Source of the DNA: Minisyncoccota bacterium
GTDB taxonomy: Bacteria > Patescibacteriota > Minisyncoccia > Phycocordibacterales > UBA9973
Length of the DNA stretch: 64,000 bases
Reading direction: 5' to 3'
Assembly: GCA_041663185.1 (NCBI GenBank)
Contig: JBAZQY010000002.1
Location: forward strand, 152,496 to 216,495
Part shown: piece after piece, positions 48,639-60,001 of the stretch
How positions within the stretch are numbered: the first letter of the stretch is position 1
How the letters are laid out: each line of letters begins with the position of its first letter
Position numbers and translations under genes: made by a program
The notes under the pieces: generated by a model
Told to the model about the DNA's origin: nothing
Databases searched by the model: none
Seen by the model: the letters and a program-made list of their open reading frames with translations, nothing else

Positions 48639-48723
48639 GGCGGAACAAATTATTTTATAAAAAAATGTCTGGCCCCTCGTCCTCCCTCCTCCGAGGACTT
48701 TTTTTAGAATATAATTTGTGTAG
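48639..48723. repeat. 85-nt intergenic repeat, copy 1 (copy 2 at 59917-60001; 3 mismatches)
   Basis: Aligned by eye: gcggaacaaattattttat[a/g]aaaaaatgtctggc[c/t]cctcgtcctccctcctccgaggactttttt[t/c]agaatataatttgtgtagc. It contains a CCTCG/CGAGG stem whose loop is CCTCC-rich. Confidence 0.7.
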
Positions 48724-48732
48724 CCAATATTA

Positions 48733-49533
48733 TTAACCAATTTTAATTTTGTTATGATATTTTTCGGCGACCAGAGCGATTTTCTCCATGACAGCAATTG
48801 CTTCGACTGGAAAGTTCCCCTTGGCCGATTCTTCCGAAAGCATGACGCCATCAGCTCCATCCAAAATTGCATAAGCGACATCTGAAACTTCGGCTCGAGT
48901 CGGATTCAAACTGTCAACCATCGAGAGAAGCATTTGAGTAGCGACGATAACCATTTTGCCGGCTTTTTTGCATTCTTGTATTATATGGTGTTGAATAAAA
49001 GGAATTTCTTCAAGTGGAAATTCATTTCCTAGGTCACCACGGGCTATCATAATAGCGTCTGATTCTTTTATTATTTCATGGAGATTTTCATAGGCGAGTT
49101 TGCGTTCAATCTTTGCAATGACTTTTTGATTTCCACCTTTTTCATTAATTAATTTTTTTAATTCAATAACATCATGAGCAGTACCGACAAAAGATAAGGC
49201 GACATATTCTACATTATGTTTTATTCCAAACGATAAATCAGCGATATCTTTTGAAGTTATGACTTCCTCATTTTCTTTCCCTCCAAAATGATGGCTACTC
49301 CCCTCTTGGACTCTTGGACCAGACAAATCTTGAATAATTGGAATTGATAAATTATATTTTTGAGACACTTCACGAATATTTTTTATAACATCTTCGTACC
49401 ATTCATACGTTCCCCATGAGAAATTTAAACGGGCCATATCCATTCTATGTCCTATCATATTGGATATAATTTCTTTACTTTCGCTTGATGGACCCAAGGT
49501 TGCAATAATTTTTGTTTTAGATGATTCTCCCAT
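48733..49533 (-). CDS. pyk: pyruvate kinase, short form (A-domain TIM barrel only)
   Basis: TKIIATLGPSS, MIARGDLG, VATQML, MLSEESA. Only 266 aa, and both the B-domain lid and the C-terminal domain are missing. Confidence 0.7.
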   Translation of the reverse strand: MGESSKTKIIATLGPSSESKEIISNMIGHRMDMARLNFSWGTYEWYEDVIKNIREVSQKYNLSIPIIQDLSGPRVQEGSSHHFGGKENEEVITSKDIADLSFGIKHNVEYVALSFVGTAHDVIELKKLINEKGGNQKVIAKIERKLAYENLHEIIKESDAIMIARGDLGNEFPLEEIPFIQHHIIQECKKAGKMVIVATQMLLSMVDSLNPTRAEVSDVAYAILDGADGVMLSEESAKGNFPVEAIAVMEKIALVAEKYHNKIKIG

Positions 49534-49547
49534 ATATTTTTAATTTA

Positions 49548-50780
49548 TTAATTTGAACGACTAGTTATTTTAATAATTCGCTCATATTTGACGTTTCTTT
49601 CTTTGGGCCCCAAGGCGCCCGCTTTAATACCAAAACATCCAAAGGCACAAGATAGATCACCAATAAAGTCATCCATTGTCTCTCCACTTCGGTGGCTGAC
49701 AATACAGTCAATATTATTTTCTCGCGCAAGCTTCATTGTTGCGAGAGTCTCCGAAAGTGTACCGATCTGATTGGGTTTGATAATTATTCCCTTGATACTT
49801 TTTTCGTCGATGGCTTTTTGAAGTCGCTTGGTGTTTGTAACAGTCAAATCATCTCCGATGAGCTTAATATCACCAATTCTTTCTTGTAATATTGTAAATC
49901 CGATATAATCTTCTTCATCAAGAGGGTCTTCGGTGGAAATCATGGGAAAGCCATCACAGATTTGCTCGTAAAGATTAATCATTTCGTCATTGGCCCAGTC
50001 CTTTCCCATAAATTTATATACGCCCTTATCATGATCGTAGAAAGAGCTGGCGGCGACATCAAGTGCAAATTTAATTTTATCTTGATATCCCAATTCTATG
50101 ACAGCCTTTTCCAAAAGTGTTAGCGGTACAATAACATTTTCTACATCAAGAGCTACTCCGCCTTCATCGCCCTTTACGGGCGGTTTCCCAAATTCTTTTA
50201 AAATAATTTCGTCTAGTTTCTCTTCTATTTCCCGGCTGATTTTTACACTTTCTTCTGCTGTCTCAACTTGAGGAACGATATGATATTCTTGAAAAGCTAA
50301 TTTTGTTTTAGCGTGTTTACCTCCATTGATCAGATTAAAATATAAAAATGGAACTTTTCTAGATGGAGTTATTTCTGCCAATGTTTTTAAATATTCATAA
50401 ACCTCCATATTCATAACCTTGGCGGCAGTTTTTGCGCAAGCGATACTTACGCCGATCATACTATTTCCCCCCAGGTTAGTTTTTTGAGGAGTGCCGTCAA
50501 GTTGTATCATTATGTTATCAATTTCTTTTTGCTTATCTACCTCTTTTCCAATAAGTGCTGGCTTTATGATAGTTTCAATTTTTTCAATTGCATTTGAAAC
50601 TCCACTTTTACCACCCTCGTCATCACGAAGTTCACAGGCTTCATATTTACCAGTACTTGCGCCAGATGGAACTTCGAAAACCCCCACGACATCGCCTACA
50701 TAGACAGAAACCCTAAGCGTCGGATTTTGACGCGAATCAAGAATCTGCTCGGCTGTTATATTTGTTATTTTTTTATCCAT
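49548..50780 (-). CDS. eno: enolase (phosphopyruvate hydratase)
   Basis: ILDSRQNPTLRV...SHRSGETMDDFIGDLS signature motifs. Confidence 0.95.
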   Translation of the reverse strand: MDKKITNITAEQILDSRQNPTLRVSVYVGDVVGVFEVPSGASTGKYEACELRDDEGGKSGVSNAIEKIETIIKPALIGKEVDKQKEIDNIMIQLDGTPQKTNLGGNSMIGVSIACAKTAAKVMNMEVYEYLKTLAEITPSRKVPFLYFNLINGGKHAKTKLAFQEYHIVPQVETAEESVKISREIEEKLDEIILKEFGKPPVKGDEGGVALDVENVIVPLTLLEKAVIELGYQDKIKFALDVAASSFYDHDKGVYKFMGKDWANDEMINLYEQICDGFPMISTEDPLDEEDYIGFTILQERIGDIKLIGDDLTVTNTKRLQKAIDEKSIKGIIIKPNQIGTLSETLATMKLARENNIDCIVSHRSGETMDDFIGDLSCAFGCFGIKAGALGPKERNVKYERIIKITSRSN

Positions 50781-50918
50781 GTTCCTATATTATATCCTTA
50801 AAATAACATTTTTCCAACAACTTTAATGTATTGAAATATTAAATTTGACAAAATTGGCTATAAATGATATAGTTAAAATGAGTTTTAAAATTCTTTTTAC
50901 TAACCAAAATACAAAAAA

Positions 50919-57944: not shown

Positions 57945-57962
57945 GTTTTCTTATTTTTATAA

Positions 57963-58406
57963 TTATTTTCGGTATTTTTTAGTTCTCCACTTATCGGCAA
58001 TCTTGATTCTATTAAGTGATCTTTCGAGTTCTGTTTCAAAGTGTTCAAAGTCAACAATTTCATTATTCTCTGCCTGTTTACGAAGCTCTTCAGCTTTGGC
58101 TTTAGCTTTTTCAATTTCTTCTTCGGTGATGTCTCCAATGTGCTCGGCAAAGTCAGCCAAGATTGTGACGGTTGTCACGTCACCATCTTTTTTTGTTTCA
58201 ACGAATCCACCGACAACACCCATAGGAATATGTTCCCCATCATTTTGAGCAACGATATCACCTGAGGCAAGTGATGCGACAAGAGGAATGTGGTCAGGCA
58301 GAATTGTTATCTCCCCTTCTGTCGTTGGAATTGTAACCAAATCCACCAATTCTTCTAGAATTAATTTTTCTGGTGTGACAATTTTTAATTGTAATTTTTT
58401 TGACAT
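57963..58406 (-). CDS. atpC: F0F1 ATP synthase subunit epsilon
   Basis: KIVTPEKLILEE..VTIPTTEGEITILPDHIPLV, with a C-terminal helical hairpin. Confidence 0.9.
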   Translation of the reverse strand: MSKKLQLKIVTPEKLILEELVDLVTIPTTEGEITILPDHIPLVASLASGDIVAQNDGEHIPMGVVGGFVETKKDGDVTTVTILADFAEHIGDITEEEIEKAKAKAEELRKQAENNEIVDFEHFETELERSLNRIKIADKWRTKKYRK

Positions 58407-58528
58407 ATATGTATTTGCGGAGGTGTATGTTTAAAATTTATGAGTAGGTGTGGGCGCGCCGGAGCGAGCTTTGCGAGCGGAGAGGGATAAGCGAGTAAAT
58501 TTTAAATATACACTGACGCAATGCTATT

Positions 58529-59905
58529 CTAAATGGCACCTTGCATATAGAAATCATTTTCTGGTTTCGCATCATGCTTACCTTCTAAAATTTCCTTAAA
58601 CGAACGAATTGTCTCTGAAAGTGGTACGTATACCCCTTTTCTTCCTGTAAATTGTTCAGCTACGAAGTTTGGCTGAGAAAGGAACTTTTGAATCTTTCTG
58701 GCACGAGCCACAAGTTCTTTGTCTGTATCAGACAATTCTTCCATGCCCAAAATTGCAATAATATCTTGCAAGTCTTTATATCTTTGAAGGACACGTTGAA
58801 CTTCACGAGCAACGTCATAGTGTTCACGCCCGACAATGTTTGGATCAAGAATTGTTGATGATGAGTCGAGTGGATCAACCGCTGGATAAATTCCAAGTTC
58901 GGTAAGTGAACGATTTAAGACGACGGTTGAATCAAGGTGAGAGAAAGTTGTGGCTGGGGCTGGGTCAGTGAGGTCATCGGCCGGCACATAAACTGCTTGA
59001 ACGGAAGTTACTGAACCTTTATCTGTCGAAGTAATACGTTCTTGCAAGATTCCCATTTCTGTTGCCAGGGTTGGTTGATATCCAACGGCTGATGGAATAC
59101 GCCCAAGCAATGCGGACACTTCAGATCCGGCTTGAGTGAAGCGGAAAATATTGTCGATAAAAAGAAGCACGTCTTTATTTTCTTCGTCTCGGAAGTATTC
59201 AGCCATTGTAAGTCCTGAGAGCGCCACACGTAACCGTGCACCAGGTGGCTCATTCATTTGTCCGAAGACCATGGCAACTTTTGGAAGCACGCCCGACTCC
59301 TTCATTTCATGGTAGAGGTCATTACCTTCACGAGTACGTTCACCGACACCAGCGAAAACAGAATATCCGCCGTGGTTTTGGGCAATATTGTGAATTAATT
59401 CTTGAATAACAACAGTTTTTCCAACTCCAGCACCTCCGAATAGACCAACTTTTCCTCCCTTAACGATTGGACAAATAAGGTCGATGACTTTAATACCAGT
59501 TTCGAGGATTTCAACTTTAGTAGCTTGAGAAACGAAATCAGGAGCTTTGCGGTGAATAGATAAACGTTTGCTAGTGTCTTTCAATTCTCCTCCATCAATT
59601 GGTTCACCAAGAACGTTGAACATTCTACCAAGAGTGACGCCACCGACTGGAACGGAAATTGGCATGCCTGTGTTTGTGACTTCTATTCCACGAGCAAGTC
59701 CATCGGTCGAATCCATTGCCACTGCTCGAACGGTATTCTCACCGATGTGTTGTTCGACTTCTAGAACGACAGTTTTGCCATTGTTGCCAGCCATGTCGCT
59801 AGGCAGGTCGACAGTAAGAGCTGTGTAAATATCTGGGACATCACCTTCGAATGCGACGTCTACGACCGGACCAATAATTCTTTTTATAATACCTGTTGTT
59901 TTCAT
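58529..59905 (-). CDS. atpD: F0F1 ATP synthase subunit beta
   Basis: Walker [18 protein letters not shown]-like motifs and overall beta-subunit collinearity. Confidence 0.97.
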
Positions 59906-59916
59906 CTTCTTTTAAT

Positions 59917-60001
59917 TGCGGAACAAATTATTTTATGAAAAAATGTCTGGCTCCTCGTCCTCCCTCCTCCGAGGACTTTTTTCAGAATATAATTTGTGTA
60001 G
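59917..60001. repeat. 85-nt intergenic repeat, copy 2 (between atpG and atpD)
   Basis: See copy 1 at 48639-48723. Both copies are in the same orientation relative to the flanking minus-strand genes. Confidence 0.7.

Follow-up and report, generated by a model that had tools for sequence, protein, structure and literature searches.

What is a nearly identical sequence of 85 nucleotides (nt) doing at two different operon junctions of one small bacterial genome? The question is raised by a 64-kb stretch of a metagenome-assembled genome (MAG) of a Candidatus Paceibacterota bacterium (contig JBAZQY010000002.1; "the window" below means this full stretch, whose coordinates are used), in which the element precedes a 2-hydroxyacid dehydrogenase gene and, again, the ATP synthase gene atpD. 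Our analysis favors the answer that it belongs to a new family of small, non-coding, dispersed palindromic repeats, resembling repetitive extragenic palindromes (REPs), Rickettsia palindromic elements (RPEs), and transposable elements of the miniature inverted-repeat kind (MITEs), in a narrow clade of Candidatus Paceibacteria (candidate phyla radiation, CPR, or Patescibacteria); we put the probability of this reading at about 0.62. It is preferred because the copies occupy unrelated sites, one of them is inserted in uvrC, some corresponding sites in relatives are empty or hold remnants, and sister families have the same build. A small mobile repeat was among the options listed by a first-pass annotation of this DNA, and it is the one that these observations fit.

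Within the window, the element stands twice on the minus strand, and direct comparison of the two sites bears out the earlier description of near-identical 85-nt copies with three mismatches. The sequence, with copy differences bracketed, is GCUACACAAAUUAUAUUCU[A/G]AAAAAAGUCCUCGGAGGAGGGAGGACGAGG[G/A]GCCAGACAUUUUUU[U/C]AUAAAAUAAUUUGUUCCGC, and two of the three mismatches form a compensatory change from an A-U to a G-C pair in the long helix. The sites had been placed at 48639-48723 and 59917-60001, which located them correctly; the best register, in which positions are given here, is one base off. Both copies are sense to their flanking minus-strand genes and stop short of the next start codon by 10 and 12 nt, as first described. 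The gene order around copy A is enolase, a short 266-amino-acid pyruvate kinase, the element, and a D-2-hydroxyacid dehydrogenase; around copy B it is atpA, atpG, the element, atpD, and atpC. The features are as follows.

48733-49533, minus strand: short pyruvate kinase gene (pyk), 266 amino acids, assigned by Pfam, upstream of copy A
47658-48629, minus strand: 2-hydroxyacid dehydrogenase gene (2-HADH), assigned by Pfam, downstream of copy A
48640-48724, minus strand: copy A, 85-nt element of type 1, in the pyk/2-HADH spacer
48699-48724, minus strand: 5' arm of copy A with the terminal motif GCUACAC (48718-48724) and an A7 tract, pairing with the 3' arm
48667-48698, minus strand: G-rich conserved apex of copy A, GUCCUCGGAGGAGGGAGGACGAGGGGCCAGAC
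48679-48698, minus strand: P2 stem-loop of copy A, GUCCUC, loop GGAGGAGG, GAGGAC
48667-48678, minus strand: unpaired 3' apex segment of copy A, GAGGGGCCAGAC
48640-48666, minus strand: 3' arm of copy A (AUUUUUUUAUAAAAUAAUUUGU) with the terminal motif UCCGC, 10 nt before the ATG at 48629
60030-60980, minus strand: atpG, upstream of copy B
58529-59905, minus strand: atpD, downstream of copy B
59918-60002, minus strand: copy B, 85-nt element of type 1, in the spacer between atpG and atpD, ending 12 nt ahead of the atpD start codon (ATG at 59905)
59945-59976, minus strand: conserved apex of copy B, with A and not G at the variable position; P2 stem-loop at 59957-59976

A 24-nt core is found at exactly two positions in the window, where none is expected (100 shuffles), and nhmmer and blastn found no further copy in the 64 kb. 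The GC content of the window is about 34%. The nearest relatives of its atpG protein, at most 71% identical, come only from MAGs of Candidatus Paceibacterota, Nomurabacteria, and Parcubacteria, and its atpD protein is identical to MFA6251580.1, from a Candidatus Paceibacterota MAG.

The type-1 family to which the two copies belong numbers 15 copies, distributed over 10 independent sites and at least eight genomes or metagenomes. These sites lie between pyk and 2-HADH, atpG and atpD, and atpA and atpG; after serS; after tatD; before thrS; before a gene resembling those for aminoacyl-tRNA synthetases; between rpmE and prfA; before a small open reading frame (ORF); and inside uvrC. The genes downstream of the ten sites share no functional theme, and at all ten the element is sense to the flanking genes (two-sided p ~0.002). 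The exact core is present in six metagenome contigs (L002, L003, L004, L005, L006, and L007). In L002 and L006 the whole 85 nt is near-identical to the window copies yet stands at other loci; in L003, L004, L005, and L007 the 32-nt apex is identical, and the arms differ in sequence but still pair. About 1.5 Mb of DNA from relatives, comprising atp loci L008-L087 and contigs reached through atpD and 2-HADH homologues, was scanned by Hamming distance and nhmmer, which added three copies in a Candidatus Nomurabacteria genome (L009, fen_1328), single copies in L088 and in L089, a unitig (L091) whose end falls within the core, and a diverged copy in Parcubacteria RAAC4_OD1_1 (L011) that keeps the arms and has a largely different apex. 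The exact 24-nt core has no match in 185,579 reference genomes, and a relaxed core has none among viral contigs, so there is no link to phages in that collection.

The atpG-atpD junction carries the element not only in the window but also in L009 and L011, which are other MAGs, and in L091. Independent Logan unitigs, which are derived from the reads of two other samples, terminate inside the core beside 2-HADH (L001) and beside an atpD 92% identical to that of the window (L091), the behavior to be expected of a true repeat.

Two weak matches below the Rfam thresholds lie on contigs that carry copies. Upstream of thrS, L004 1-133 resembles a truncated T-box leader (E 0.15), and the element there stands between the putative T-box terminator and the thrS ATG; L003 5661-5690 resembles CRISPR-DR40 (E 0.28).

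One site lies within coding sequence. In L005 the uvrC ORF reads through a type-1 element, with the GIY-YIG domain upstream and the UVR and RNase H domains downstream in the same frame. A distant UvrC (L058, 29% identity) has gaps at the position of the element in an alignment that is ambiguous there, and no UvrC chain in the PDB spans the insertion region. This copy (L005 3124-3227, minus strand) has its terminal motifs swapped relative to all others, with UUUCGC on the 5' side and GCUACAC on the 3' side; neither inversion nor circular permutation fits the swap.

Filled, empty, and decayed sites can be compared directly. The atpG-atpD junction is filled in four genomes and is a plain spacer of 24 to 46 nt, without the element, in most relatives. 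The pyk/2-HADH site, filled in the window, is empty (10 nt) in L092/L093, and in L094/L095 only the 3' arm and leader are left; the same remnant is found at the atpA-atpG site of L096/L097.

Sister families repeat the design. A type-2 family has the core GUGUCGGAGCCCUUUAGGGUAAAGCG in the same architecture, with a 5' end, GCGGAAUAAAUUAUU, that resembles the antisense end of type 1, and a third family (type 3) shares the build with yet another core. Both sister families are represented in the window, in the same operons as type 1.

63765-63856, minus strand: type-2 copy in the atpB-atpE spacer, with arms at 63772-63795 and 63826-63849
58426-58521: type-3 copy in the atpD-atpC spacer, with AT-rich arms on either side of a G-rich core, GAGUAGGUGUGGGCGCGCCGGAGCGAG...GCGGAGAGGGAU

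At L005 5388-5439 a type-2 core lies antisense within uvrA and accounts for an in-frame insertion of about 28 amino acids relative to PDB 2r6f, and a type-2-like copy occupies the atpG-atpD spacer of L096/L097 at a different point of the spacer. Type 3 is found at the same junction in L089 (7458-7551), where it is 84% identical but faces the other way with respect to the atp genes. One spacer can thus hold different families in different genomes.

Other structured GC-rich sequences were seen at comparable positions. The atpG-atpD spacers of L019, L021, L024, L026, L088, and L089 contain unrelated short GC-rich hairpins or palindromes, often with a G-rich run such as GGGGUGAGGUGA after them; in Paceibacteria, operon spacers are recurrent landing sites for structured GC-rich inserts. 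Within ORFs of the window there are GC-rich palindromes, some of them perfect, at 5545-5601, 8893-8940, 9350-9389, and 63928-63972; a MurD-like ligase holds one of them, a MurC-like ligase two, and the 3' end of atpB one. CCUGCCUCG...CGAGUCAAGGCGGG is shared by the final two of these ranges, and the four look like further in-frame palindromic insertions.

All type-1 copies fold as a single long hairpin. The unit, of about 85 to 100 nt, consists of termini, AT-rich arms, a 6-bp GC stem, and a G-rich apex. A terminal motif, 5' CUNCAY ... RUUNCG 3', is common to all arm types, and the arms form a helix of about 27 bp with small internal loops, in which pairing is kept and sequence is not. The 32-nt apex reads GUCCUC-GGANGAGG-GAGGAC-GAGGNGCCAGAC, in which the 6-bp stem GUCCUC/GAGGAC closes the loop GGANGAGG (N standing for G, U, or C); the unpaired 3' strand of the apex conforms across the family to GAGG(N1-5)GCCAGAC. 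The first-pass annotation had described a small CCUCG/CGAGG hairpin with a tail. That hairpin is broken in the L009 copies (CAAGU, CGAGU), which retain instead GUCCUC/GAGGAC, the minimum free energy pairing, and the whole of the ~85 nt is one imperfect palindrome whose long helix had been overlooked.

Covariation supports this fold. The five arm types differ in sequence, and each still pairs with itself: the duplex energy of 5' with 3' arms averages -15.8 kcal/mol for cognate arms, compared with -4.1 +/- 1.9 kcal/mol between different arm types. Structural comparison across relatives, proposed when the element was first noticed, gave the arm helix strong support. Double compensatory changes affect 8 of 28 pairs in the W/L3 alignment (98.5% of cells paired, versus 51-56% in slid controls) and 7 of 25 in the L5 alignment (95% paired, versus 49-63%). 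Arm pairing was assessed through these duplex energies and per-subtype alignments; RNAalifold, given all 14 copies together, retrieved no more than the 6-bp apex stem, a limit that arises because MAFFT cannot align five arm types in one register. A strand-specific test of wobble pairs, as a sign of structure selected in RNA only, found no asymmetry. Because the two strands fold with equal energy and equally few G.U pairs (12 of 428 and 15 of 416), the symmetry is that of a palindrome at the DNA level and does not single out the RNA strand.

Several observations weigh against a mobile repeat. Copy density appears low, with 2 copies seen in 64 kb and 3 in 21 kb. The flanks of 14 copies contain no direct repeat that would indicate a target-site duplication and are merely A/T-rich, and among the 48 ORFs of the window there is no transposase, REP-associated tyrosine transposase (RAYT), or other candidate mobilizing gene. 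The center of the element is conserved and its arms vary, which is the reverse of classical MITEs. Most copies, 9 of the 11 that are intergenic, end 6 to 19 nt before an ATG, including that of L006, where the spacer is about 480 nt long.

Resident copies, moreover, are conserved in place. Between the window and L009 the element is identical at 81 of 85 positions, although four-fold sites in atpD are saturated (41% identical); the arms of the L011 copy are identical at 56 of 57 positions, with a diverged apex; and the L094 remnant matches at 32 of 33 nt, with four-fold sites 34% identical. No recombination tract was found in the flanks of the atpG-atpD junction, and recent horizontal replacement of this junction was rejected, as the flanking coding DNA is 65-88% identical and contains no identical tract. 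The compensatory pair is of the G-C version at atpG-atpD in all four genomes and of the A-U version at other loci, which argues that the copies at this junction are old and vertically inherited, not recent insertions. Identity of ~95-99% where synonymous sites are saturated implies that resident copies are under some constraint. Selection could be acting against half-disrupted hairpins within essential operon transcripts, or the cause could be concerted evolution or a host function, for which an intercistronic processing or stability element and a leader for initiation independent of Shine-Dalgarno (SD) pairing could be candidates. Constraint of this degree is what a host-useful RNA element would show.

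These points lead to the alternative that survives best, that the element is a cis-acting RNA beneficial to the host, spread by duplication and now selected, in which the long hairpin is processed (e.g., by RNase III) or serves as insulator or stabilizer; cleavage would leave the AU-rich 3' arm as a short, unstructured leader for SD-independent translation of the next cistron, and the apex would bind a protein or RNA factor. Its case draws on the in-place conservation, far above neutral at three loci, on the strong arm covariation, on the sense orientation of every copy, and on the spacing before start codons, the L006 copy included. To these can be added that exactly the 3' arm and leader remain in two independent decay events, and that the three copies of L009, each of a different arm type, all carry a G-to-U change in the loop; this concerted change hints at copy-to-copy conversion or at co-evolution with a trans-acting factor. 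The habits of the host are also in keeping with it. Any SD-like 4-mer is found upstream of only 6 of 50 long ORFs in the window, and TATAAT lies 7 to 10 nt ahead of the ATG in many genes (e.g., ORFs at 33580, 34181, 9488, and 52645-53181, the last on the minus strand), which together suggest that translation initiates largely without SD pairing, often on leaderless transcripts or very short leaders. No convincing -35/-10 promoter was seen in the 3' arm by eye, and none was called in a scan.

Against a host-beneficial RNA stands the dispensability of the element: in close relatives the sites are empty or truncated, and the spacers of most relatives are plain. One copy lies inside uvrC, the downstream genes share no theme, and the sister families occur in either orientation and also inside uvrA. 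The 27-bp helix is too stable for a switch, and wobble pairs show no strand asymmetry. We accordingly regard this explanation as unlikely, if serious, and a purely host-functional reading as about equally doubtful.

A related proposal combines mobile spread with later purifying selection: the element would be an orientation-locked, structured intercistronic RNA device of CPR bacteria that lack SD sites and are prone to leaderless initiation. Its apex, which resembles (GGA)n, may fold into a G-quadruplex or serve as a protein-binding site. Processing of the long AU helix would leave the 3' arm as the short, unstructured leader of the gene that follows, and the apex would co-evolve with a genome-encoded trans-acting factor. 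Were this so, the ~95-99% identity at the same junction, the constant distance to the start codon, the survival of the 3' arm, and the L009 loop change would all be explained. We hold this proposal to be improbable, to about the same degree as a purely host-functional reading.

That the element is a new riboswitch or self-cleaving ribozyme, with the 32-nt apex as ligand-binding or catalytic core and the long helix as P1, appears very unlikely. An invariant core closed by a covarying helix, in a 5' or intercistronic position near start codons, invites the comparison, and no existing Rfam family accounts for the element: there was nothing at the gathering score, and nothing credible at E <= 10 for it or for four other loci. 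The helix is nevertheless very long and stable for a P1, and the core is one 6-bp stem with no covariation-supported tertiary pairing. The associated genes are heterogeneous (atpD, atpG, 2-HADH, thrS, prfA, and the uvrC interior), the L011 copy keeps its arms with a largely different apex, both strands fold equally, and the core has been lost where the gene stays.

Slightly weaker again is the main proposal of the first-pass annotation, a combined intrinsic terminator or attenuator and SD-like initiation element on the mRNA strand. It had rested on the purine-rich loop (GGAGGAGG) and on a U tract downstream on that strand, which is U7 in copy A, as stated, but U6C in copy B. A consensus terminator scan called both window copies only on the plus, antisense strand.

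48679-48698, plus strand: terminator-like antisense reading of copy A, GUCCUC-CCUCCUCC-GAGGAC followed by U7 (terminator scan)
59957-59976, plus strand: terminator-like antisense reading of copy B, followed by U6 (terminator scan)

There the geometry is GUCCUC-loop-GAGGAC, with a 6-bp stem and an 8-nt loop leading directly into U7 or U6. On the mRNA strand the U tract is 13 nt from the stem and paired with the A tract. The element is like intrinsic terminators, and like terminator-like repeats such as SPRITE, in its antisense strand, with a GC-rich stem and U6-7, and unlike them in the wrong geometry of its transcribed strand. Ordinary terminators of the window are different and unique hairpins (e.g., 57907-57944, 46305-46342, and 51840-51874), and atpD must be co-transcribed with atpG. 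An SD role fares no better, as SD usage is essentially absent from this organism; the loop variants GGAUGAGG and GGACGAGG, in which G is replaced by U or C, abolish GGAGG; and the GGAGG-type motif lies ~45 nt upstream of the ATG, in a hairpin loop at the far end of the 27-bp helix. We consider this combined element highly improbable. An assembly or binning artefact, or chance similarity, has in its favor nothing beyond the window being a MAG and is of negligible probability, given that zero chance matches are expected and that independent assemblies and unitigs from other samples carry the element beside the same genes, which also answers the suspicion of an assembly duplication.

Under the preferred reading, that of a dispersed palindromic repeat, the main properties might be accounted for as follows. 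The conserved apex and termini would be the determinants of recognition or cleavage by a mobilizing enzyme or another trans-acting factor, and the arms would need only to hold apex and termini at a fixed distance. An element inserted the other way round would halt transcription of the operon and be purged, leaving the harmless orientation, in which the element would be co-transcribed as a long intercistronic hairpin. If single mutations in an arm are deleterious and conversion occurs from copy to copy, resident copies would stay nearly unchanged.

Among described systems, close parallels can be drawn with RPEs. RPEs are ~100-150 nt long and nearly half of them are coding, and MITE-type hairpins can be RNase III substrates and alter the expression of neighboring genes (PMC10969869). 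The dispersed sites, coding insertion, sister families, site polymorphism, and unitig breaks of the element match the published descriptions of RPEs and MITEs (PMC10969869). Like RPEs, the Paceibacteria repeats are short palindromic hairpins in the small AT-rich genome of a host-dependent bacterium, form several families, and are inserted both between genes and in frame within housekeeping genes, here uvrC (type 1) and uvrA (type 2). The resemblance is one of description and not of sequence comparison, and the phyla are unrelated (Paceibacteria and Rickettsiales). The element is also shorter (~85 nt), is coding at 1 of 10 sites versus nearly half of RPEs, has an invariant apex and covarying arms, and in type 1 is strictly orientation-locked. 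We know of no transposase for either the RPEs or the Paceibacteria element.

REPs and the elements known as BIMEs or REPINs are extragenic imperfect palindromes within operons, mobilized by RAYT transposases in Proteobacteria; their stems are GC-rich and ~20-40 nt long, carry a 5' GTAG motif, and have roles in mRNA stabilization and differential operon expression. The element likewise is a palindrome of operon spacers that would be co-transcribed as a hairpin, with a conserved hairpin and short flanking motif and no target-site duplication, and the REP roles offer a plausible analogue for what it might do. It differs in its AT-rich helix of ~27 bp, its GC-rich apex, and its low apparent copy number; its conserved termini contain no GTAG motif of the REP type, and neither RAYT nor Y1 is encoded in the window. 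Correia elements of Neisseria and ERIC sequences, which are of the MITE kind, are small non-autonomous inverted repeats in operons that are transcribed as long hairpins and are polymorphic for presence; the element is similarly small, multi-copy, and polymorphic for presence, and its arms correspond to terminal inverted repeats of ~27 bp. Classical MITEs have target-site duplications and a parent insertion sequence, whereas the element lacks the former at its flanks and has no known parent. The GC clusters of yeast mitochondrial genomes, which are GC-rich mobile palindromes in AT-rich DNA found in spacers and sometimes in coding sequence, are an analogy only, with no link of sequence or mechanism.

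A literature search found no description of palindromic repeat families in CPR/Patescibacteria. The tiny genomes of these bacteria are usually portrayed as containing few repeats and little mobile DNA; here at least three related families of hairpin repeats colonize core operons (atp, glycolysis, and translation factors) and even DNA-repair genes. The signature of apex and arms, the strict orientation, and the conservation in place make type 1 a good test case for how minimal genomes come to tolerate or domesticate selfish palindromes. In practice, the element is also a source of contig breaks in assemblies of these organisms.

Some features of the window stand apart from the repeats. At 47507-47562 on the minus strand, a 56-nt segment of leader or promoter type, which includes a small hairpin (GAAAUGUAAACAUUUC), is 84% conserved at L006 9660-9714 and directly precedes unrelated genes, for a 293-amino-acid protein without a Pfam match in the window and a 687-amino-acid membrane protein in L006. 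At 28850-32040 there is a small defense island with a Bsp6I-like restriction endonuclease and an AbiTii protein; within it, 29429-31069 on the minus strand encodes an unusual fusion of a LexA DNA-binding domain, an S24 peptidase, and a C5 cytosine methyltransferase. Gene orientation changes from plus to minus at ~44700-45100, where genes converge and the cumulative GC skew peaks, consistent with a replication terminus there. The 5' half of tRNA-Glu(CUC) (27700-27749) has an 88% near-duplicate at 27506-27555, ~190 nt upstream of the tRNA, that was called by neither ARAGORN nor Rfam and may be a tRNA remnant or part of a split or intron-containing tRNA. Finally, two tandem small hydrophobic ORFs (...LTILGAVIGIGVAYLVFRFGWRKVKG...) share a 103-nt direct repeat over their C-terminal halves (41242-41344 and 41454-41556, 92%), and a GC-rich hairpin follows at 41568-41610.

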